41,778 nt of DNA from a virus, in the IMG/VR virus record IMGVR_UViG_3300031456_000010, positions 1-41,778 of that record. One strand, written 5' to 3'. The first letter of the stretch is position 1, and every line of letters begins with the position of its first letter. Under the pieces are notes generated by a model. That model did no database searches, was not told the origin of the DNA, and saw nothing but the letters and a program-made list of their open reading frames with translations. The translations under genes were made by a program, and so were the position numbers. Shown here in pieces: positions 4,431 through 27,350 of this stretch.

Positions 4431-4604
4431 ATGGACAGCCAGATATCCGATCTGCCACAGATCATTCAGGGAGTGGGAACATCAGCGTCGGGAGTGATCA
4501 TCTTCCTCCTGTGGAGGCTAACCAAGGAAATGGGGGAACTGAAAACGGAGCTTAAGACGTTCACGGATGTGATGAGCCGCTTTGTTCCCGGAGCCAAGCC
4601 GTGA
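4431..4604 (+). CDS. Putative holin (57 aa, one TM segment)
   Basis: Below the 60-aa track cutoff: MDSQISDLPQIIQGVGTSASGVIIFLLWRLTKEMGELKTELKTFTDVMSRFVPGAKP. Hydrophobic core followed by a charged tail. The stop overlaps the endolysin GTG (GTGA at 4601-4604). Confidence 0.6.
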   Translation: MDSQISDLPQIIQGVGTSASGVIIFLLWRLTKEMGELKTELKTFTDVMSRFVPGAKP

Positions 4605-5086: not shown

Positions 5087-5415
5087 AACTTAATCCGGGC
5101 TGGAAAGAAGTCTTTGGTGCTATCGGACTCTGCACAATCATCGCCTTGATCATTGCCATTGTCGTGATGCTGGTTGCTTGTACGGGCACCTCGGTGGGCC
5201 TGAAAATTAATCACGACTCCAGTGCGCAGGATGTGCACGATGCTTGCGAGAACAACACGGTGGGCCCGAACCTGCGCTTTCCAATCGGTCGCGGCGACAG
5301 TCCTTACCGCCCTGAGCTGACGTTTGGGCTGGGCTGGGACGTGCGCGGTCGACCGTGCCAGGGTCGGGATCCGGTCGGCAATGCCTCATTCCTCTTCCCG
5401 CTGTGGGTTAAATGA
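5083..5415 (+). CDS. Membrane-anchored or lipoprotein-like lysis-cassette protein (110 aa)
   Basis: ATG 5083 forms an ATGA overlap with the endolysin stop (track start GTG 5074 is also possible). Long hydrophobic segment ends in the lipobox-like LVAC. Confidence 0.6.
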   Translation: MKLNPGWKEVFGAIGLCTIIALIIAIVVMLVACTGTSVGLKINHDSSAQDVHDACENNTVGPNLRFPIGRGDSPYRPELTFGLGWDVRGRPCQGRDPVGNASFLFPLWVK

Positions 5416-13443: not shown

Positions 13444-13712
13444 GACTTAGCGCCTTCGCAAGCGTACGTGTGAATGCCGTTACCTGAGCTGACCGTCGTG
13501 CAGCGTCCGATCTTGATGGCCTGTTCGGCTTCCTTGGGCGTCAGGCAGTGCACGGCGGAGTCCGAATAGTTCGTGCTGAGCGCTAACTCTGCGCGGACCG
13601 CGATCGCCTGCTGCTCGCAGACAGCCTTACTCTCCATCACCATCGCGGAGGCAAATAGTTTGTCGCTCGTCATGGAGGCGACGAAGATAAAGACGACGTA
13701 AAGCGTGCTCAA
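13440..13712 (-). CDS. Small secreted Cys-containing protein (90 aa from TTG 13712; 77 aa from ATG 13673)
   Basis: GGAG at 13724..13721, 8-nt spacer, then TTG. Signal-like N-terminus STLYVVFIFVASMTSDKLFASA and 4 Cys in the mature part. The longer track ORF is rejected because a terminator and promoter lie inside its 5' part. Confidence 0.5.
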   Translation of the reverse strand: MSTLYVVFIFVASMTSDKLFASAMVMESKAVCEQQAIAVRAELALSTNYSDSAVHCLTPKEAEQAIKIGRCTTVSSGNGIHTYACEGAKS

Positions 13713-13813: not shown

Positions 13814-13843
13814 AGTATGCACGCAGAGTGCACGCAGTGTCAA
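13814..13843 (-). promoter_or_regulatory. Sigma70-like promoter TTGACA-N18-CATACT
   Basis: Minus strand carries TTGACA at 13843..13838 and CATACT at 13819..13814, immediately after a terminator. The spacer contains the direct repeat CTGCGTGCA twice. Confidence 0.5.
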
Positions 13844-13844
13844 G

Positions 13845-13870
13845 AAAAAATTGCGGGCCCGAAGGCCCGC
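13845..13870 (-). terminator. Rho-independent terminator after the secreted-protein gene
   Basis: Minus-strand GCGGGCC-TTCG-GGCCCGC (7-bp GC stem, tetraloop) followed by AATTTTTT. Confidence 0.75.
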
Positions 13871-13882
13871 AGAACAGGGGGA

Positions 13883-14503
13883 TCAAACTGGCTCGAACGT
13901 CACGACTACATTCTCGGGTGTCGCCGGCACCGCACCGACGGGCGTCGGGCCCGTCGGCTTAACACATTGTTCAATCGTGTAGTTCGAATTTGCACTTTTA
14001 CCGATCGCGGCCACGGCGATACAGACATTCTTATTCTGTATCGTCAGTGCATAAGTCGGCGCGCTGCCTACGCTCACCGTCTGAATGCCGCCCTCGGCTT
14101 CGTACCGCCAGTTGAGCGAGTAACCCACAATCTCCCCGGGCGGTAAATCGACTCCGCCCGTGCCTTTCGTCACGGCATCCCAGCGAATAGTGGCGCGCCA
14201 CTGCGTAATCGGCACGGCTTGGGTCGTTTGAGACTTGGCGAGCGTCACCCGCAGGGCGGGGCAGGAAATACTTCCCGACTCGATATTGCTTGGACAGACC
14301 CGGACCGGATCGGCCGGCGCAAGACTCTCCCAGCGTTTCCACTGATTCGCGGGATTGAGCACGAGAAGGCCGTCAGCGCCGGGTTTGTAGACATATTTCG
14401 CTGCGGGGCACGGATTAGTTTGATCCGTACACACGAGCGGCAGGTTCGTCGCAGCGCTAGCGAGCGACGGGACGAAGAGACAGAGGGCGAGAAAAGTTTT
14501 CAT
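13883..14503 (-). CDS. Secreted protein with C-terminal fibronectin-III-like domain (206 aa)
   Basis: Signal peptide MKTFLALCLFVPSLASA/ATN. Several Cys in the mature part. RWDAV..GEIVGYSLNW..YALTI..CIAVAAIG pattern. AAGGAA SD. Confidence 0.8.
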   Translation of the reverse strand: MKTFLALCLFVPSLASAATNLPLVCTDQTNPCPAAKYVYKPGADGLLVLNPANQWKRWESLAPADPVRVCPSNIESGSISCPALRVTLAKSQTTQAVPITQWRATIRWDAVTKGTGGVDLPPGEIVGYSLNWRYEAEGGIQTVSVGSAPTYALTIQNKNVCIAVAAIGKSANSNYTIEQCVKPTGPTPVGAVPATPENVVVTFEPV

Positions 14504-14620
14504 ACGTTCCTTAAAAGTGTCTGTCGCGAGCGGGGGAATTGAGTTACTGGCCTCTTACCGTTCCACAGACTCTCGGGGTTTTAGGACCATGCGCCGGGCA
14601 CTCGCCGAGTAATCCCAAAC

Positions 14621-14680
14621 TAATCCCTCCTGCGTCGCGCTTCACTAAAGGATACCGTGCGTACGACGCAGGAGGGATTA
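14621..14680 (-). terminator. Long hairpin downstream of 14688..15440 (17-bp perfect stem, 26-nt loop); terminator or regulatory RNA structure
   Basis: TAATCCCTCCTGCGTCG at 14621-14637 pairs with CGACGCAGGAGGGATTA at 14664-14680. Only a short TTTGGG follows on the minus strand. An extra GTAATCCC copy at 14609-14616 allows alternative pairing. Confidence 0.5.
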
Positions 14681-14687
14681 CTTCCCG

Positions 14688-15440
14688 TCAGTACTTCCGA
14701 TTCTGCATCGGCTGCGCAGCCGGTGCATTACTTTCTTGTGCGTAGGGCGTGAGAATGACGGCGTCCGCCGTATCCCGGCGCTGCATCAGGTCGCTTAAGA
14801 ACTGTTCACTCACTTGCGCGACCGGGGCGAACTTCACTTCGAGCTGGTTCCGAGCATGCGGATGGAGAGAAACTTCCGTCACCATCGCCCAGGGCGGGCG
14901 GCGAAACTCACCGGCCAGTTGAGCGGTGTAGTTGGCCCAGTTCTTCACGGAGGTGACGGGAATGGAGCACGTCGCCGCTTCGGCTTTCTTCACCGAGTCG
15001 GGCGGCGCATTTTGCATGACTGCGGAGACGGGCAGCATGATCAGGCGTCGACTTTCTTTACACGCCTTGCCCTTCCCCCCATTTGGCGCGGACCCCCAAG
15101 CATTCCACTTGCACTCCGCGCATGACACCGCTTGTCTTTGTCGGGCCTGAGCGTGGGGCACCATGTCCTCACCACTGAGCGAGAGGGCATAGCAGATCGG
15201 AGACTCCGGCTTGTTGGGGTCAAACTGCCGCTGTTCGAGGACGTTCTGGTACAGCGCATGCTCTTTGGCGGAGCTGATGATGACCACATTCAGCTTGTTG
15301 CCCGGAATCGCCTGATTTTGATAGGTCATGATGCCGCCGCGGAAGGCGAGACGGCCCACAGCGGGGCGCTCCTGCGCTGCCGCCTTCGTCGCGTGCTTCG
15401 CGAGTTCTTCTTCCCACTTAATGGGTAAATTATCTGTCAT
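14688..15440 (-). CDS. Putative ssDNA-binding / recombination-associated protein (250 aa); function tentative
   Basis: Long ORF in the replication module. CAECKWNAWGS..GKGKACKESRRL motif. Assignment rests on position next to the nuclease/polymerase/primase set. Confidence 0.65.
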   Translation of the reverse strand: MTDNLPIKWEEELAKHATKAAAQERPAVGRLAFRGGIMTYQNQAIPGNKLNVVIISSAKEHALYQNVLEQRQFDPNKPESPICYALSLSGEDMVPHAQARQRQAVSCAECKWNAWGSAPNGGKGKACKESRRLIMLPVSAVMQNAPPDSVKKAEAATCSIPVTSVKNWANYTAQLAGEFRRPPWAMVTEVSLHPHARNQLEVKFAPVAQVSEQFLSDLMQRRDTADAVILTPYAQESNAPAAQPMQNRKY

Positions 15441-15553
15441 GTTTCTTAGCTCCGTCGTGTTTTAGATCTGCGCGCCCGTTCTCTACGATGGACCGGCATA
15501 TTCGGTAGGGCGCCCCTCGCCATTTCCCCGCCCAAGCAAATCGATTGGGGAAT

Positions 15554-15937
15554 CTACTTAGTTTTCCCGACAATCGTGAGATCGTCAACCGGAAAGGTGG
15601 TCACGCCAGGAATCACGATCCCATCCTCCCAGCGCTCCTCAACCGCCTTCTCCCCGATCCGGCGCTGTAGTAGCTCGAACGCATCGTACTGTTTGATGTA
15701 GGCGTAGAGCGCTCCCCAGTTCTCCACGATCGGCTTGTTCTTCCGATGCCAGTTGAGCGTGCCGAGCGTGCCACCAAGCGACTTTGCCCCACTCGCCGCG
15801 CGAATCTCGAGCAGATTTTTCTTCAGCTGATTCTCTTCAGCTTTGAGGAGCGCGGCGGCTTTGTCGGCGAGCAGCCGGTCGATGCGCTTAGCGATGTAGG
15901 CATCGACCAACTGAGTCAGATTGGCCAGATCAGTCAC
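15554..15937 (-). CDS. Hypothetical protein (127 aa)
   Basis: GTG 15937 preceded by an AGGAAGG SD. 8-nt overlap with the upstream stop. Track start TTG 15955 is an alternative. Confidence 0.7.
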   Translation of the reverse strand: MTDLANLTQLVDAYIAKRIDRLLADKAAALLKAEENQLKKNLLEIRAASGAKSLGGTLGTLNWHRKNKPIVENWGALYAYIKQYDAFELLQRRIGEKAVEERWEDGIVIPGVTTFPVDDLTIVGKTK

Positions 15938-16772: not shown

Positions 16773-16815
16773 ACACAACGTGCTCGCAGTATGCGCGCGT
16801 GCTGCTCTCAAAAGC

Positions 16816-16840
16816 AAGAACCGGCTGGAAGCCGGTTCTT
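16816..16840 (-). terminator. Hairpin AAGAACCGGC-5nt-GCCGGTTCTT, terminator-like on the minus strand
   Basis: 10-bp perfect stem. On the minus strand it is followed by GCTTTTGAG. Lies in the primase 5' region, so it could stop antisense read-through. Confidence 0.45.
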
Positions 16841-22016: not shown

Positions 22017-22181
22017 TCAATCTGCTTGTTCAGCTCTCTGATTGGCTTCGATGGTGTTGATGAGTGCGAAGACCATGCGATGAAAGCGGGTTACGCCGTG
22101 TCGGTAGTCTTTACTGAATCGGAATCCCGTCAGTTTTAAGGCCGGGGCGATCAGTTTGGCATTCAGGCTTCGCATCGTCAT
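22017..22181 (-). CDS. Hypothetical protein (54 aa; ATG 22175 also possible)
   Basis: GAGGAG SD upstream of ATG 22181/22175. Track start 22229 is a TTG inside the divergent promoter region. Confidence 0.5.
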   Translation of the reverse strand: MTMRSLNAKLIAPALKLTGFRFSKDYRHGVTRFHRMVFALINTIEANQRAEQAD

Positions 22182-22211
22182 TATCTCCTCAGTTGCTCGC
22201 AGTATGCACGC

Positions 22212-22239
22212 GGGAACTGACGCTGTCAACCCGCGTTAA
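22212..22239 (+). promoter_or_regulatory. Candidate ECF-type promoter GGGAAC-N16-CGTTAA
   Basis: AAC ends at 22217 and CGT starts at 22234. The spacer contains GACGCTGTC (22219-22227). GGGAGA SD at 22248 and ATG at 22259 follow. Confidence 0.4.
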
Positions 22240-22258: not shown

Positions 22259-22447
22259 ATGATCATGACGCTCATCACGCTGCTCATCTTCCTCGCCATT
22301 ATCGGGCTTGTGCTTTGGGGGATCCAGCAGATTCCCGGCATCCCGGCGATCGTCAAGACGATCATCTACATTATCGCCGGGATCCTTCTCTTACTCTGGC
22401 TGTTGAACGCCGTTCAACAGCATGGCTCGCTTTCGCTAGAAGGGTGA
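22259..22447 (+). CDS. Two-TM hydrophobic peptide (62 aa), antisense to the early operon
   Basis: ATG 22259 preceded by a GGGAGA SD. MIMTLITLLIFLAIIGLVLWGIQQIPGIPAIVKTIIYIIAGILLLLWLLNAVQQHGSLSLEG. Confidence 0.65.
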   Translation: MIMTLITLLIFLAIIGLVLWGIQQIPGIPAIVKTIIYIIAGILLLLWLLNAVQQHGSLSLEG

Positions 22448-22600
22448 GTTGCATTGCCACAGCCAGTCCGGATCAAACTCCCCATTAGTGCGGAAGCTGT
22501 CCGGCTCGGCCATTTCCATAATGCCTTGGACGAACTGGGCAAACGTCGCCTGCTGCTTGCCGCAGTAACAGATCCATAGAAGCAGTTCGTCGTGCGTCAT
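22436..22600 (-). CDS. Hypothetical protein (54 aa)
   Basis: Below track cutoff. ATG 22600 forms an ATGA overlap with the upstream stop. Its 3' end overlaps the plus-strand peptide gene by 12 nt. Confidence 0.5.
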   Translation of the reverse strand: MTHDELLLWICYCGKQQATFAQFVQGIMEMAEPDSFRTNGEFDPDWLWQCNSPF

Positions 22601-22821
22601 GACATGCTCAATGGGCAGCTATCGAGAAGCTGATAGTAGATACCGCTCTCCCCTATTCTATGAAATGGGCGGGCATCGAGATCTGCGCGGTTAAACAGGA
22701 CAAACTGTTGAGTGTGTTCCACGTTGCGCAGGACCTGTCTAAGGGCGCGGGTGACGTTGTCTTCTGCTGCGTACGTCGCCACGTGGACTTCCACGGCAAG
22801 GCCCCAACATAGGCCGATCAT
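22597..22821 (-). CDS. Hypothetical protein (74 aa)
   Basis: Track ORF. ATGA overlaps at both ends. Confidence 0.6.
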   Translation of the reverse strand: MIGLCWGLAVEVHVATYAAEDNVTRALRQVLRNVEHTQQFVLFNRADLDARPFHRIGESGIYYQLLDSCPLSMS

Positions 22822-22988
22822 TGAATCGCTGCCGCGTAGTTGATGGCGATTTGCAGCTGCTCGATCGCCATCCCAACGCGAGCGCGGTTGGGGCCGATCA
22901 GCTGCATCTGAATGATCTCAAGCTTTCGCTCGGCCTGCTTTAAGTCGTGCAGGGCCTCTTGGATGTCGATCCGGTCGGTGTCTGTCAT
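22818..22988 (-). CDS. Coiled-coil small protein (56 aa) overlapping the sigma factor 3' end
   Basis: Below track cutoff. GGAGAC SD with 6-nt spacer before ATG 22988. MTDTDRIDIQEALHDLKQAERKLEIIQMQL... Confidence 0.5.
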   Translation of the reverse strand: MTDTDRIDIQEALHDLKQAERKLEIIQMQLIGPNRARVGMAIEQLQIAINYAAAIQ

Positions 22989-23448
22989 GTCTTAGTCTCC
23001 CTTTGGCTTGTGTGAGGTACTTTTTGATCATCGATTCGGAGAGGTGGAACTGGGTCGCGATCTCGGAATAGGTGTACTCCTCGAGTGCATGCATCTCAAA
23101 AATGCGCTGACACTTGGGGGAGAGATGAGCGATTAATGCGAGTATCTCGCCGATCGTCTGCTCTCGTTCCAATTCCTCTTGTGGAGTTGCGGAGTGATCG
23201 AGCAGCTGCGCCAGCGCGAGAGGGTCGTTCCTCGGCGCTTTGTGCTGGCCATGCTCCCAAATGAGGTGCTTGGCGACCGTGTAGGCGTAGTAGGCCGGCT
23301 CCCGGATATCCCGGCTGGATTGGAGGATGCGGACATAGGTGTCTTGGAGGAGGTCCTCCACGTCTGCCCGGCGCATGCGCTTGCCCAGACGGTCCATGAG
23401 CTTGTGGCGCTGCGCATGGACTGCCTGCACTGCCGCGCGCCGGTTCAT
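22918..23448 (-). CDS. ECF-type (group 4) sigma-70 family sigma factor (176 aa)
   Basis: Start at ATG 23448 (ATGA overlap upstream). Region 2: ADVEDLLQDTYVRIL..EPAYYAYTVAKHLIWEH. Region 4 HTH: LSPKCQRIFEMHALEEYTYSEIATQFHLSESMIKKYLTQAKGRL. Confidence 0.85.
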   Translation of the reverse strand: MNRRAAVQAVHAQRHKLMDRLGKRMRRADVEDLLQDTYVRILQSSRDIREPAYYAYTVAKHLIWEHGQHKAPRNDPLALAQLLDHSATPQEELEREQTIGEILALIAHLSPKCQRIFEMHALEEYTYSEIATQFHLSESMIKKYLTQAKGRLRHDRHRPDRHPRGPARLKAGRAKA

Positions 23449-23597
23449 GTGCGCTGCGCGGCCTCGAGTGCGTGGATGTAGATCCTGACCGCTTCGACTA
23501 GCTCGGGCTCCCAGCTTCTGCACTTGTTCGGATTGATGGGGAGCAGCGCGACTCGGATGAGTTGCGCGACATCGAGCGGAATACTGACGGTCTTCAT
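23445..23597 (-). CDS. Hypothetical protein (50 aa)
   Basis: Below track cutoff. ATGA overlaps at both ends. MKTVSIPLDVAQLIRVALLPINPNKCRSWEPELVEAVRIYIHALEAAQRT. Confidence 0.5.
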   Translation of the reverse strand: MKTVSIPLDVAQLIRVALLPINPNKCRSWEPELVEAVRIYIHALEAAQRT

Positions 23598-23776
23598 GCG
23601 GCGATAGCCTCTTCAATCATGAGGGGGGCGAAATGCTCGTGCAGTCTTTGATGCTCACTGTCGGAGATCTCGTGGCTTGCCCACATGCTGTCGAGGATTT
23701 CTTGAGTCGTGGCGGCGGTGATGCGCCGACGAGATTCGATACGGGCGATTAACTTGTCCATGCGCGCAGTGTGCAC
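23594..23776 (-). CDS. Hypothetical protein (60 aa; GTG 23776 or ATG 23761)
   Basis: Track ORF with helical composition. No clear SD. Confidence 0.55.
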   Translation of the reverse strand: MHTARMDKLIARIESRRRITAATTQEILDSMWASHEISDSEHQRLHEHFAPLMIEEAIAA

Positions 23777-23792
23777 GCGGGGATGAGGGGCG

Positions 23793-24578
23793 TCAAGCTT
23801 TTCTCCATCGTTTCCAGCTGGGGTCGAAGGTGTAACCGGATTGGTAGAGAAAGGCTAGCGCGCGCTGCCAGTCTTCTTTAGAGGGGCGGCGGGCGTTGTT
23901 GAGGAGTTGAAATTGGTAGGTCGTGAAGGCGGGGCCGGGAAGTTGCCATTGGCCGGTGATTTGGGCGGGGAGACTTCCGCGGACATTGGGCAGTGCGTAT
24001 TTGGACGTGCCGGCGATCTTTAATGCGCCCTTGGCGCGCAGATAGTTTTGTGCCCATTGGTAGTTCTCGGGGGTGAGCCGCATGGCATTGGCGTCGAGCA
24101 AGTTAGTGACGTTAAAGGCGCCGGGGGGAACTCGAATGTGTTTTGGATTAGAGGGTTTAGGCAAGGGGCGCTTCGTATATTGGCGTTTCTGCATTTTATA
24201 GGACCAATACTCGTAGTTATGGCGGGGGCGGAGGCCGCGGGAACGCATGATCTTATGGAACTGGTTAATCTTCGCTATATTTTCCAGGCTCCGATTAGCC
24301 TCATTTATAGGCAAAACACCCGGAAAATACATCGAGATAAAAGAGTTAATGGTGTAAATACGCTTAGATTCGGGGTCGTTATTTCGAGATATTTTTTCGT
24401 CGATCCAGTACTCACACAGACCTTGGACTCGCTCGCGGACGAAGCCGAGGTCTGTAAGTCTATGACGTAGATAGGTAAATTGCCTGTGGGAGGGTTTGGC
24501 AATGCCGTGTGCGCGGAAGAGCGACGTCAGCTCGAAGGCGAGGTCCCGGGGAGGAGTAAGGGCCTGATAATTAAGCAT
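23793..24578 (-). CDS. Basic 261-aa protein, first gene of the leftward early operon, adjacent to the iteron region
   Basis: Long ORF, Lys/Arg/Trp/Tyr-rich. No motif recognised and no SD before the ATG. Confidence 0.8.
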   Translation of the reverse strand: MLNYQALTPPRDLAFELTSLFRAHGIAKPSHRQFTYLRHRLTDLGFVRERVQGLCEYWIDEKISRNNDPESKRIYTINSFISMYFPGVLPINEANRSLENIAKINQFHKIMRSRGLRPRHNYEYWSYKMQKRQYTKRPLPKPSNPKHIRVPPGAFNVTNLLDANAMRLTPENYQWAQNYLRAKGALKIAGTSKYALPNVRGSLPAQITGQWQLPGPAFTTYQFQLLNNARRPSKEDWQRALAFLYQSGYTFDPSWKRWRKA

Positions 24579-24783
24579 GTTTGCAGGTAATCATTTGAGT
24601 GGAATAGATACGTAGATGTAAGTGTCTGATTAATATCGATAGATTGGAGTATACTATGTAAGCAGATAAAGATATATATCTAACAAGAATAGCTACTAGT
24701 AGGTGTACAGTAGTGAAATTCTATAGAGAGTTTGAGAGAAAGATCCGCTTGCATACGAAGCATTGATTCTAAAGGGAAAAAAG

Positions 24784-24799
24784 CACTTTTCGAAAAGTG
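24784..24799. repeat. Perfect 16-bp palindrome CACTTTTCGAAAAGTG (operator-like)
   Basis: Read directly. Shorter palindromes lie nearby: CGCTATAGCG at 24822-24831 and CTCTCGAGAG at 24985-24994. Confidence 0.9.
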
Positions 24800-24885
24800 A
24801 ACACGTGCCTGCGCTATAGCGACCCCTTTGGCGGCTGATCCGGGGTTATCTCCGATAAGGATCTTGGCCCTCAACTAGAGATGTC

Positions 24886-24975
24886 GACCCTCAATAGGAA
24901 GGGAGGATCGCTGTTGACCCTCAATAGGAAGGGAGAACCCTCAATAGGAAGGGAGAACCCTCAATAGGAAGGGGG
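24886..24975 (+). repeat. Four direct 20-bp iterons (G/A)ACCCTCAATAGGAAGGG(A/G)G
   Basis: Copies at 24886-24905, 24916-24935, 24936-24955 and 24956-24975, with start spacing 30, 20, 20 bp. A degenerate copy GGCCCTCAACTAGAG lies at 24866-24880. Confidence 0.9.
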
Positions 24976-25018
24976 GGTTCCCGTCTCTCGAGAGCGCCCT
25001 CTTCGATTAACGTGGATT

Positions 25019-25202
25019 TAACTTAGTTCCGACTTAACTTAATCTTCGTTGATCTAACTTAATGCATACAGCGCTGTATGCATTAAGTTAACTAACAGCT
25101 GTATAAACATTATGTAAAACTATAAGTAGCTGAAAAGATTATCTCTGCACTGCACCATGCGCATAATAACCATTAAGTTAAATAGCTCGTTATGTTAAGT
25201 TA
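25019..25202. repeat. Six TAACTTA / TAAGTTA boxes in AT-rich DNA
   Basis: Direct copies at 25019, 25035 and 25055; inverted copies at 25084, 25174 and 25196. The 10-mer CATTAAGTTA occurs at 25081 and 25171, with its complement at 25055. Confidence 0.85.
25055..25090. repeat. Perfect 36-bp palindrome TAACTTAATGCATACAGC|GCTGTATGCATTAAGTTA
   Basis: Read directly; the two 18-nt halves are exact reverse complements. Confidence 0.95.
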
Positions 25203-25360
25203 GCTGTATTTTGGCCCCCGCCGGGGTGTTTTCCAGGGAAGCGAAAAAGCTATACTCGACCCACCCACGTAATCTTTTAAAAAATTAACTTTGCGCTCAG
25301 GAGATATTGTTTTTGACTAAAACACTTGCGCGCAGAGTGCGCGCCGTGTAGGATTGAAGA

Positions 25361-25594
25361 ATGAAAACTAAATCATTTAAAGTAACGCTGCCCATTTGCG
25401 GATACGCCTCCGCAGCAGATCTGGAAAAATACGTTAGGGATGCCGTAATAGGTTGGTGCGGCCAGTACACGGGGGATTTGGATGACTGGCGCGACGAACT
25501 CGCAGATAACCGGAGTAAGATAAAAGTTACGCGGCTGAATTGCGTTCGAACAAAACGCCATGAAAAGAGAAGTGAGTCGACTGAATCGACCTAA
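25361..25594 (+). CDS. Hypothetical protein (77 aa)
   Basis: ATG preceded by AGGA. Isolated rightward gene between the control region and the leftward HNH cassette. Confidence 0.55.
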   Translation: MKTKSFKVTLPICGYASAADLEKYVRDAVIGWCGQYTGDLDDWRDELADNRSKIKVTRLNCVRTKRHEKRSESTEST

Positions 25595-26681: not shown

Positions 26682-26892
26682 CGTTGTCTCCCCAAATTTT
26701 CGGAATAAAACGAGACTTGGCCTCGATCAGCTCGCGCCAGTCTTGTCGCACCGCGTAGCGGTCGCTACCGGCCACAGCGCCCGACATCTCGACGATTTGC
26801 GCCGCCGTCAGACCCCGAATCGGGGCCGGGTAGCTCTTGATTTTGATCAAGGGCACTGCTTTGTGTTTCTTAAAAACGCGACGCTGTCTCAT
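26674..26892 (-). CDS. Hypothetical protein (72 aa)
   Basis: Start moved to ATG 26892 (MRQRRVFKKHK). The upstream part of the track ORF covers the divergent promoter region. Confidence 0.6.
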   Translation of the reverse strand: MRQRRVFKKHKAVPLIKIKSYPAPIRGLTAAQIVEMSGAVAGSDRYAVRQDWRELIEAKSRFIPKIWGDNDA

Positions 26893-26899
26893 GCGTGCA
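26872..26899 (+). promoter_or_regulatory. Candidate ECF-type late promoter AAAAAC-N16-CGTGCA upstream of the terminase genes
   Basis: AAC ends at 26877 and CGT starts at 26894. The spacer contains GACGCTGTC (26880-26888), identical to the 9-mer at 22219-22227. The TerS-like ATG at 26949 lies ~50 nt downstream. Confidence 0.4.
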
Positions 26900-26948
26900 T
26901 TCTGCGCGCAAATAGACGGCAGGGCAACCCCAAGATACACTGCAGAAG

Positions 26949-27350
26949 ATGGAAACCCTGCCCAAAGAGTGCCCGTTCGAAGAGACGATCGAGGATTACG
27001 CACAGAGCATGGATTATTTGCTCTCTGACACGGCCGTGGAATGTCAAGAGATCAACAAGAAGCCGAAGAAGGCGCACCGCAATACACGGCTGCTCGATGC
27101 GATACAGGAAACCTTCGAGATCATCGGAGGGGTGCCACGGATGGCCATTTGGGCGGATCAGTATCCCGGAGATTTCTACAAACTCGTCGGCAAACAGATT
27201 CCCGGCATGGTTCAGCAGCTCAATTTCAACGGCCCGACGCAGATCAATATTCAACCCGCCCTACCTCGGAGTGCGCTCGATGGTGAAAGTGACGAAACAA
27301 CGCATGCAGGTGCCCATCGGCTCCTCGACGCCGATCCCCGTGAGCTATGA
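26949..27350 (+). CDS. Putative terminase small subunit (133 aa)
   Basis: First gene of the rightward block, upstream of TerL. The RMAIWADQYPGDFYKLVGKQIP segment recalls podovirus TerS-like proteins. Assignment is mainly positional. Confidence 0.55.
   Translation: METLPKECPFEETIEDYAQSMDYLLSDTAVECQEINKKPKKAHRNTRLLDAIQETFEIIGGVPRMAIWADQYPGDFYKLVGKQIPGMVQQLNFNGPTQINIQPALPRSALDGESDETTHAGAHRLLDADPREL

Follow-up and report, generated by a model that had tools for sequence, protein, structure and literature searches.

A sigma factor gene in a phage genome without an RNA polymerase gene

We analyzed a stretch of viral DNA of 41,778 nucleotides (IMG/VR record IMGVR_UViG_3300031456_000010, hereafter the window), which carries on its minus strand a gene for a 176-amino acid (aa) protein related to sigma factors of the extracytoplasmic function (ECF) type. 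A 127-bp terminal direct repeat identifies the window as a complete, circularly assembled genome of 41,651 bp with 56% GC. PHROG and Pfam searches place terminase, portal, major head, tail, and amidase-like proteins on the plus strand, in a stretch that starts at 26.9 kb, crosses the contig end, and reaches 5.8 kb, and DNA polymerase I, two helicases, and an exonuclease on the minus strand; a VapE-type primase/helicase is encoded on the plus strand inside the minus-strand block. The capsid protein is 69% identical to that of Stenotrophomonas phage BUCT555, in which we found no sigma gene, and 58-61% identical to those of Myxococcus phages Mx8 and Mx9. No RNA polymerase gene was found in PHROG and Pfam scans of all large open reading frames (ORFs) of the window, the longest of which encodes no more than 720 aa, and the sigma gene is located in the leftward early/middle block. 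Both points agree with a first-pass annotation, which had seen no phage RNA polymerase in the 41.6-kb genome and had placed the sigma factor in an early operon. An Rfam scan and a tRNA search of the window returned no match. The sigma gene is organized as follows:

22918-23448, minus strand: ECF-type sigma factor gene, 176 aa, intact ORF with ATG at 23448
Roughly 23248-23442, minus strand: sigma2, residues 3-67 by the domain limits of the AlphaFold2 (AF2) model
23185-23247, minus strand: linker between sigma2 and sigma4
22981-23184, minus strand: sigma4, residues 89-156 by the AF2 domain limits
22918-22980, minus strand: basic disordered tail plus stop, residues 157-176 being disordered in the AF2 model

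Pfam profiles detect Sigma70_r4_2 (E = 5e-15, 55.3 bits versus a cut-off of 25.7), Sigma70_r4 (1.1e-8, 34.8 bits versus 24.1) and, over residues 13-63, Sigma70_r2 (8.7e-6, 25.9 bits versus 24), with no Pfam match for region 1 (1.1) or region 3 in the 176-aa protein. The whole protein matches NCBIfam model TIGR02937 (sigma70-ECF) at 71.3 bits versus 42.9, and all of these region 2, region 4, and ECF profiles score above their curated cut-offs. The next NCBIfam models are FecI-like and Bacteroidetes-type ECF families, far under their own cut-offs, and the protein stays under every NCBIfam subfamily cut-off. PHROG 1740, 'RNA polymerase sigma factor', is matched at 1.2e-11. An AF2 model built from nine family members has the sigma2-linker-sigma4 fold, with two helical domains (3-67 and 89-156) whose predicted local distance difference test score (pLDDT) is about 90 in both, a disordered linker (residues 68-85), and a disordered C-terminal tail. 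In a Foldseek comparison with the PDB, ranks 1-6 and 8-19 are ECF sigma factors and rank 7 is a chain described as RpoE, all with a probability of 0.99-1.0; SigL, SigE, SigH, sigmaE, AlgU, and SigW are among the best matches. A PDB search with the family profile found E. coli sigmaE (4.5e-9) and also SigW and SigL; the single sigma sequence retrieved nothing from the PDB, and matches came only from the profile search. The first-pass annotation had described region 2 and a region 4 helix-turn-helix (HTH) without regions 1 and 3, the architecture of group 4 (ECF) sigma factors, and this description is borne out: the strings that it quoted are present, and both the profile and the fold searches lead to ECF sigma factors.

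Two further assemblies of this phage carry the ORF with 100% identity, which makes three independent assemblies in total. Public gene calls (ENA ERZ27251605, Logan SRR8863343) omit it and call a 95-aa antisense ORF (23194-23481, plus strand). Because these calls skip the ORF, the protein is missing from protein collections, and an exact-sequence lookup gave no match. The same public calls (L099 from ENA, L100 from Logan) also place a 121-aa ORF antisense to the first late gene, at 26889-27254.

The sigma clade and its relatives

A word-indexed homologue search with the sigma protein returned nothing. HMMER recovered 2310 matches among 1.84 billion representatives, the best no better than 1e-22. 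The top matches (P0001-5, 7, 11, and 12) share 29-43% identity with the window sigma, and several align from its residue 1, which fixes the start codon at 23448. Among about 15 billion predicted proteins, the closest reaches 43% identity, and identity to any cellular protein is at most about 34% in the 1.84 billion representatives. IMG/VR scans with sigma gave no relative, and a metagenome scan with the sigma alignment returned locus L094 again plus two distant matches, nothing newly informative.

Loci L091-L098 are syntenic with the window, in the order 261/276-aa protein, small ORFs, sigma, small ORFs, DUF6011 protein, and VapE primase on the opposite strand. Their sigma homologues are 33-43% identical; L095 derives from GCA_040384165.1 (contig JAWVHB010002271.1) and L098 from JGI 3300039464 (Ga0435789_0000069). 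The clade was seen only at this locus of closely related ~41-kb phage contigs, and two of the sigma-bearing relative contigs are ~41 kb long. Their phages are the closest relatives of the window (primase 76-79%, terminase 78% identical), and the low identity of sigma by comparison indicates that it evolves much faster than the core genes. In nine of nine loci the start of sigma overlaps the end of the upstream gene. Members of the clade usually carry a basic, Ser/Thr-rich C-terminal tail of 27-40 aa, versus 3-10 aa in the nearest cellular ECF sigma factors; the tail of the window sigma is shorter than that of its homologues, and its last 24 residues are read from an alternative frame of a 56-aa gene. 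Since the domains are intact, the gene has long been retained at one locus, its translational coupling is conserved, and it is identical in three assemblies, we consider it well supported by sequence and model that the gene encodes a genuine sigma-70-family sigma factor of group 4 (ECF type), belonging to a phage-specific, fast-evolving clade.

A sister phage, IMGVR_UViG_3300005937_000051 (loci L002 and L082; primase 77% identical), has no sigma gene and replaces the sigma segment with other genes, including one for a 152-aa GerE/LuxR-type protein. Sigma is missing, together with the DUF6011 and 261-aa proteins, from relatives further away, whose primase identity does not exceed 61%. Beside the sigma locus of relatives, small HTH proteins of the GerE/LuxR type are found repeatedly (L098 9801-10004, L096 4064-4315, L092 684-1043, and the 152-aa ORF of L082). 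They lie just upstream of sigma in L098 (ATGA-coupled), L096, and L092, and none is found near sigma in the window. In P0012 (L092 2232-2879), and probably in P0017, the C terminus of sigma is fused to a helical segment. In P0012 this segment shows homology (50% over 36 aa, E = 2e-8) to a 71-aa ORF that stands alone at about 15390-15605 of sigma-less L082, in the place of sigma.

The sigma operon

Sigma is gene 3 of six in an operon whose promoter, P3, is of the sigma-70 type; the operon belongs to the leftward early/middle block. Its other genes, and the gene that converges on them, are:

23594-23761, minus strand: 55-aa ORF, first gene of the operon, with its ATG 7 nt after the -10 hexamer
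23445-23597, minus strand: 50-aa orphan ORF whose TGA overlaps the sigma ATG (ATGA)
22818-22988, minus strand: 56-aa ORF (MTDTDR...) whose first 71 nt are read in the other frame as the sigma tail
22597-22821, minus strand: 74-aa ORF (MIGLCWGLAV...YYQLLDSCPLSMS), the best candidate for a sigma partner
22436-22600, minus strand: 54-aa ORF, last gene of the operon, facing the convergent 62-aa gene
22259-22447, plus strand: 62-aa membrane-protein gene convergent to the operon, encoding a two-helix hydrophobic protein

The 55-aa ORF is probably leaderless, given the short distance from its -10 hexamer to its ATG. Neither it nor the 50-aa ORF has a homologue in the related loci, and the 50-aa ORF has no Pfam, NCBIfam, or PHROG match; in the relatives other genes fill the coupled position upstream of sigma, such as a 67-aa GerE-type HTH protein in L098. 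On the downstream side, a GGGAGA Shine-Dalgarno motif lies 8-13 nt upstream of the 56-aa ORF, and the last 71 nt of sigma overlap that ORF. Its homologues directly follow sigma in L094 (57 aa, ATGA-coupled) and occur also in sigma-less L082, and by this comparison the 56-aa ORF is a real gene that is not specific to sigma. The 62-aa membrane-protein gene has a sigma-70-like promoter of its own (TTGGCA-17-CATTAT, 22156-22184).

Homologues of the 74-aa ORF are found immediately downstream of sigma in L098, L096, L097, and L093, that is, in five of the nine sigma-bearing loci including the window, and none was found in the sigma-less loci among about 100 loci fetched. The protein has no Pfam match, a word-indexed search returned only the window's own protein, and a metagenome scan with the 74-aa family gave no new locus; a single-sequence AF2 model (pLDDT 51.6) is uninformative. 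As it is found only beside sigma, the 74-aa protein appears to be a better partner candidate than the 50-aa and 56-aa proteins, and it may be regarded as a candidate for a new sigma regulator. Pfam and NCBIfam reveal no anti-sigma domain family in the operon proteins, and the operon scans found no FecR-like neighbour.

The first-pass annotation had read the arrangement around sigma correctly: the ATGA coupling to the 50-aa ORF, the 71-nt overlap with a 56-aa ORF that has its own Shine-Dalgarno motif, and the lack of a usual membrane anti-sigma factor after the gene were all found again. Its choice of the 50-aa and 56-aa proteins as partners is weak, as the former has no homologues and the latter is kept in the sigma-less sister.

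Promoters of the early/middle block

The window contains six perfect copies of the motif GCGNGCA-NNCT-GCGNGCA, versus about one expected by chance. The motif sites and the promoters associated with them are:

13818-13835, 16781-16798, 22194-22211, 23761-23778, 25327-25344, and 26893-26910: box-motif sites, each with two direct GCGNGCA boxes 11 bp apart
Motif at 25344, minus strand: P2, upstream of an origin-like non-coding region
23768-23796, minus strand: P3, heading the sigma operon, TTGACG-17-CACACT, with the -10 hexamer within GCGTGCA-CACT-GCGCGCA
22201-22229, minus strand: P4, marking the end of the sigma transcription unit, TTGACA-17-CATACT
Motif at 16798, minus strand: P5, a box promoter

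Across 24 sites in seven loci the box consensus is cccGCGnGCAtaCTGCGnGCA. The boxes embrace the -10 hexamer, and the C at the first -10 position and the GCG flanks are invariant in 24 of 24 sites. Five of the six window sites are co-oriented with the leftward genes, the CA-NNCT of the motif forming the -10 hexamer (CATACT, CACACT, or CACTCT). In P3, P4, and P5 a -35 hexamer (TTGACA, TTGACG, or TTGCTT) is positioned 17-18 nt upstream of it. P2 has a weak -35 (TTCTTC/ATTCTT) and was not listed by the promoter scan. At the 13835 site the scored pair is TTGACA-18-CATACT, its CATACT lying just downstream of the motif, whose own CACTCT has no good -35. The sixth site, located in a divergent control region, reads perfectly on the late strand, and the early promoter there uses the reverse complement. 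A 19-nt stretch of P4 (TTCCCGCGTGCATACTGCG) is identical in L098 and L094, with the early proteins of such phages being about 50% identical, and promoters syntenic with P3 precede the sigma operon in L098, L096, and L094. The motif also occurs in L094-L096 and L098 and, as the variant GCGATCA, in sigma-less L002/L082; the more distant relatives do not have it. When IMG/VR was scanned with the promoter 16-mer, only four matches came up, all unrelated and attributable to chance. We considered whether the palindromic GC motif is a hairpin terminator or an N4-like hairpin promoter and rejected both, as it is a sigma-70-type -10 hexamer flanked by direct GCGNGCA boxes.

Some of these promoters belong to terminator-promoter cassettes on the minus strand (about 13850-13870, 16815-16840, and 14600-14660), each combining a GC-rich hairpin and its T-run with the following box promoter, whose -35 (TTGCTT or TTGACA) the hairpin overlaps. 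The cassette position is kept in relatives (L095 about 15375, L082 about 9860, L094 about 6770). A lone GGAAC-N17-TCAAT comes after the hairpin at 14600-14660, which has a 16-bp stem; genome-wide, this sequence pattern is at chance level.

The late promoter

Early and late genes diverge from a compact control region:

26893-26948, both strands: divergent control region of 56 bp with back-to-back leaderless sigma-70-type promoters

Its early direction reads TTGCCC-17-CAGAAT-6-ATG, with the ATG at 26892, and its late direction, toward the first late gene, TAGACG-17-TACACT-7-ATG, with the ATG at 26949. Since only 6-7 nt separate each ATG from the -10 hexamer, the first genes are considered leaderless. 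The late promoter of the relatives is TTGACC-17 followed by TAGACT, TACACT, or TACGAT, and sigma-less L002 has TTGCAT-17-TATCCT at the same place. The back-to-back architecture is kept in L095, L096 (369-424), L098 (5788-5843), and sigma-less L002 (about 4479-4534), and the -35 hexamers of the divergent region form an inverted repeat of the TTGACC-N3-GGTCAA type. Judged by these hexamers, the leading late promoter is of the sigma-70 type whether or not the phage encodes its sigma. Another sigma-70-like site (TTGACG-17-GATACT) lies ahead of the terminase gene. Ahead of the capsid gene there are terminator-like hairpins, with no good sigma-70 promoter after them.

The boxes of the divergent region overlap the early -10 hexamer, and the late start follows about 40-57 bp downstream of them. 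From this placement, a protein binding to the boxes could switch the early promoters off and the late promoter on, with no sigma factor involved.

Other features of the window and of the phage group

A non-coding region of ~800 bp (24579-25372), located upstream of the conserved gene for the 261-aa protein, has the appearance of a replication origin or a master control region. It contains five ~20-bp tandem repeats (CCCTTCCTATTGAGGGT; 24864-24975), a palindrome with 17-bp arms at about 25056-25096, an AT-rich stretch, and many TTAACTTAA/TTAAGTTAA boxes, and has no Rfam match. Its core of 41-55 nt (ATTTAACTTAATGGnTATTATGCGnATGGTGCA) is 92-98% identical in L095, L096, and L098 and diverged in L002. 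We discarded the idea that a 41-nt non-coding core tracks the presence of sigma rather than phylogeny, as the sigma-bearing phages are simply the closest relatives of the window.

In L095, the first product of the early promoter is, by Rfam, a 98-nt tRNA (5196-5293, 40.6 bits versus a cut-off of 29) that ARAGORN does not call. The distant, sigma-less L084 has two or three copies of TGGCACG-N4-TTGC (13606-13677 and 14317-14342) upstream of a 117-aa Ala/Lys-rich ORF. This is the consensus of sigma-54 (-24/-12) promoters and suggests that the sigma systems in use, of the host or of the phage, differ among members of this wider group.

Proposed role of the sigma factor

We propose, at a probability of about 0.6, that sigma is an accessory module on the host core RNA polymerase that serves a limited middle/late regulon, perhaps together with the 74-aa protein, and is not the sole late switch. 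Host RNA polymerase would make sigma soon after infection, because the operon is driven by the sigma-70-type P3 in the early/middle block. Sigma would bind the host core enzyme via its sigma2 and sigma4 domains, as we infer from its family membership and from the lack of a phage polymerase, and would send part of the core enzyme to a limited set of middle/late promoters. The 74-aa product of the nearby downstream ORF would probably assist or restrain sigma. An accessory regulatory module is favored over a single switch of the late block because the leading late promoter and the conserved early/middle promoters have sigma-70 geometry and because the sister phage manages without sigma.

Several observations speak against this proposal. 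No target promoter for sigma was identified in the window, and comparison of its intergenic regions with those of the sigma-bearing relatives yields only three kinds of conserved blocks, the box promoters, the late promoter, and the origin-like region. The ECF promoter pattern AAC-N16/17-CGT has no occurrence in the sense-oriented intergenic regions of the window, and GGAAC-N15-18-TCAA occurs at chance level only. The existence of a close sister without the gene counts on the same side, as does the apparent loss of part of the ancestral tail in the window sigma, deduced from the origin of its last 24 residues in an alternative frame of the next gene. Among the further searches, PvdS-like patterns are not enriched in the window, ATGTACTCT, which is common to two late intergenic sites, is not significant, and 8-mer enrichment recovered only the AT-rich origin-like region. 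Instead of an autoregulatory ECF promoter, sigma's own operon has TTGACG-17-CACACT.

The first-pass annotation had presumed that the protein redirects core RNA polymerase to the oppositely oriented late block. In the corresponding model sigma is a master late switch, without which the structural/lysis block would not be transcribed. This would suit a phage that lacks an RNA polymerase and has its sigma in the early-side block, as is also the case in the SPO1 programme. The same position is known from phiEco32-type programmes (PMC12276001); in addition, the late -35 of the window (TAGACG) is weaker than the TTGACC of its relatives, and the hairpins before the capsid gene have no good sigma-70 promoter after them. 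We nevertheless regard a master late switch as unlikely: the leading late promoter has sigma-70 geometry that is conserved in sigma-less L002, a second sigma-70-like site lies before the terminase gene, and no ECF-type motif was found upstream of the late genes. Sigma might alternatively read the box promoters (TTGAC-N12-GCGNGCA-NNCT-GCGNGCA), taking them over from host sigma-70 and autoregulating its own operon, which would allow the phage to silence the host sigma yet keep its own genes on. The restriction of the motif to the sigma-carrying clade, its conservation far beyond two hexamers over 24 sites, its overrepresentation (six perfect copies versus about one expected), the 19-nt identity between phages with early proteins only about 50% identical, and a copy ahead of every sigma operon examined would fit this idea. 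It is quite unlikely, however, because the very first early promoter is of the same class and must fire before any phage protein is made, and because sigma-less L002/L082 keeps four such promoters. Moreover, repeated 7-mers 11 bp apart resemble sites of a DNA-binding regulator rather than a sigma element, and the GAC-to-CGT spacing of about 14 nt is under the standard ECF geometry.

A bolder version of a partnership, in which sigma and the 74-aa protein form a new sigma/partner pair (the latter an anti-sigma or a co-factor like gp79 of phiEco32) that reads non-canonical promoters, would have an ECF-fold sigma keep phage promoters active while host sigma-70 is displaced; we think this, too, unlikely. 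Candidates for the non-canonical class would be the GCGNGCA-box promoters, mimicking sigma-70 geometry, or a site in the ultra-conserved origin-like core. Action on the host, with sigma activating useful host genes or serving as a decoy that competes with host sigma factors for core enzyme, would explain why no phage target promoter was found, why the nearest named profiles are FecI-like and other cellular ECF families, and why one sister phage can dispense with the gene. Given that the protein stays under every subfamily cut-off, and that vertical retention at one locus of a lytic-looking phage with conserved coupling fits the phage's own programme, a host-directed role is very doubtful. That the ORF is a decaying remnant is the least credible explanation and is highly improbable. 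Public calls do put a 95-aa antisense ORF in its place, the ORF overlaps the next gene, and its tail is truncated relative to the homologues and read from another gene's alternative frame. Against decay, the ORF is full-length, both domains are intact and above their Pfam cut-offs, the N terminus aligns from residue 1, the fold is predicted with a pLDDT of about 90, and the sequence is identical in three assemblies.

Comparison with known sigma factors

With the cellular ECF sigma factors (E. coli sigmaE/RpoE, PDB 1or7 and 6jbq; B. subtilis SigW; M. tuberculosis SigL, SigH, and SigE) the window sigma shares the sigma2-linker-sigma4 organization in about 170-200 aa, the profile and fold matches, a D-x-x-Q core-binding motif in region 2.2, and the region 4.2 HTH. 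Unlike them, it comes without an anti-sigma factor of a known family and without a nearby AAC/CGT promoter, has a basic disordered C-terminal tail, and resides in a lytic-looking phage. FecI models are among its best NCBIfam matches, and we take its region 4.2 helix 'SESMIKKYLTQAK' to resemble the 'S.S.VKKY..KA' of FecI-type proteins. It falls outside the FecI subgroup, however, scoring 59.9 bits versus 260 for NF041727 and 54.4 versus 185 for PRK09651, and it has neither a FecR-like partner nor a TonB-receptor context.

Among phage regulators, SPO1 gp28, SPO1 gp33/34, and T4 gp55 are early-expressed sigma factors that replace the host sigma on core RNA polymerase. The SPO1 and T4 sigmas are essential for defined classes of middle/late promoters that clearly differ from the host consensus. 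The present case departs from these cascades in that no such promoter class was found in the window and in that a sister phage lacks the gene. A parallel in principle is phiEco32, likewise a podovirus-type phage without its own RNA polymerase, whose sigma gp36 and helper gp79 retarget the host core enzyme (PMC12276001). Gp36 is a divergent sigma with sigma2-like and sigma4-like parts that loads onto host core enzyme for middle/late promoters together with a small protein lacking known homology (PMC12276001). The likeness appears to be one of functional analogy only. Homology to gp36 was not detected in a tblastn search of 50,697 phage records with sigma (E ≤ 1e-5), which hit only two Acinetobacter-phage records. 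Gp36 is too divergent for standard ECF recognition, whereas the window sigma passes the standard ECF profiles, and the phiEco32 promoters are known (AATGTA at -11.5), whereas no target promoter was found in the window, whose late promoter looks host-type.

About 13% of reference phage genomes encode a sigma homologue (PMC9429907), and the principle that phage sigma factors re-programme the host enzyme in phages without their own polymerase is already known. Of use here is the divergent sigma clade, which a single group of uncultured ~41-kb phages carries and whose member in the window phage is overlooked by public gene calls. The regular promoter architecture of these phages, with leaderless back-to-back promoters and box-flanked -10 hexamers, should make the targets of sigma easy to map experimentally, and the sister phage in which the sigma segment is replaced offers a natural control. 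If sigma does read sigma-70-like promoters, it would represent a compact orthogonal part for synthetic biology.

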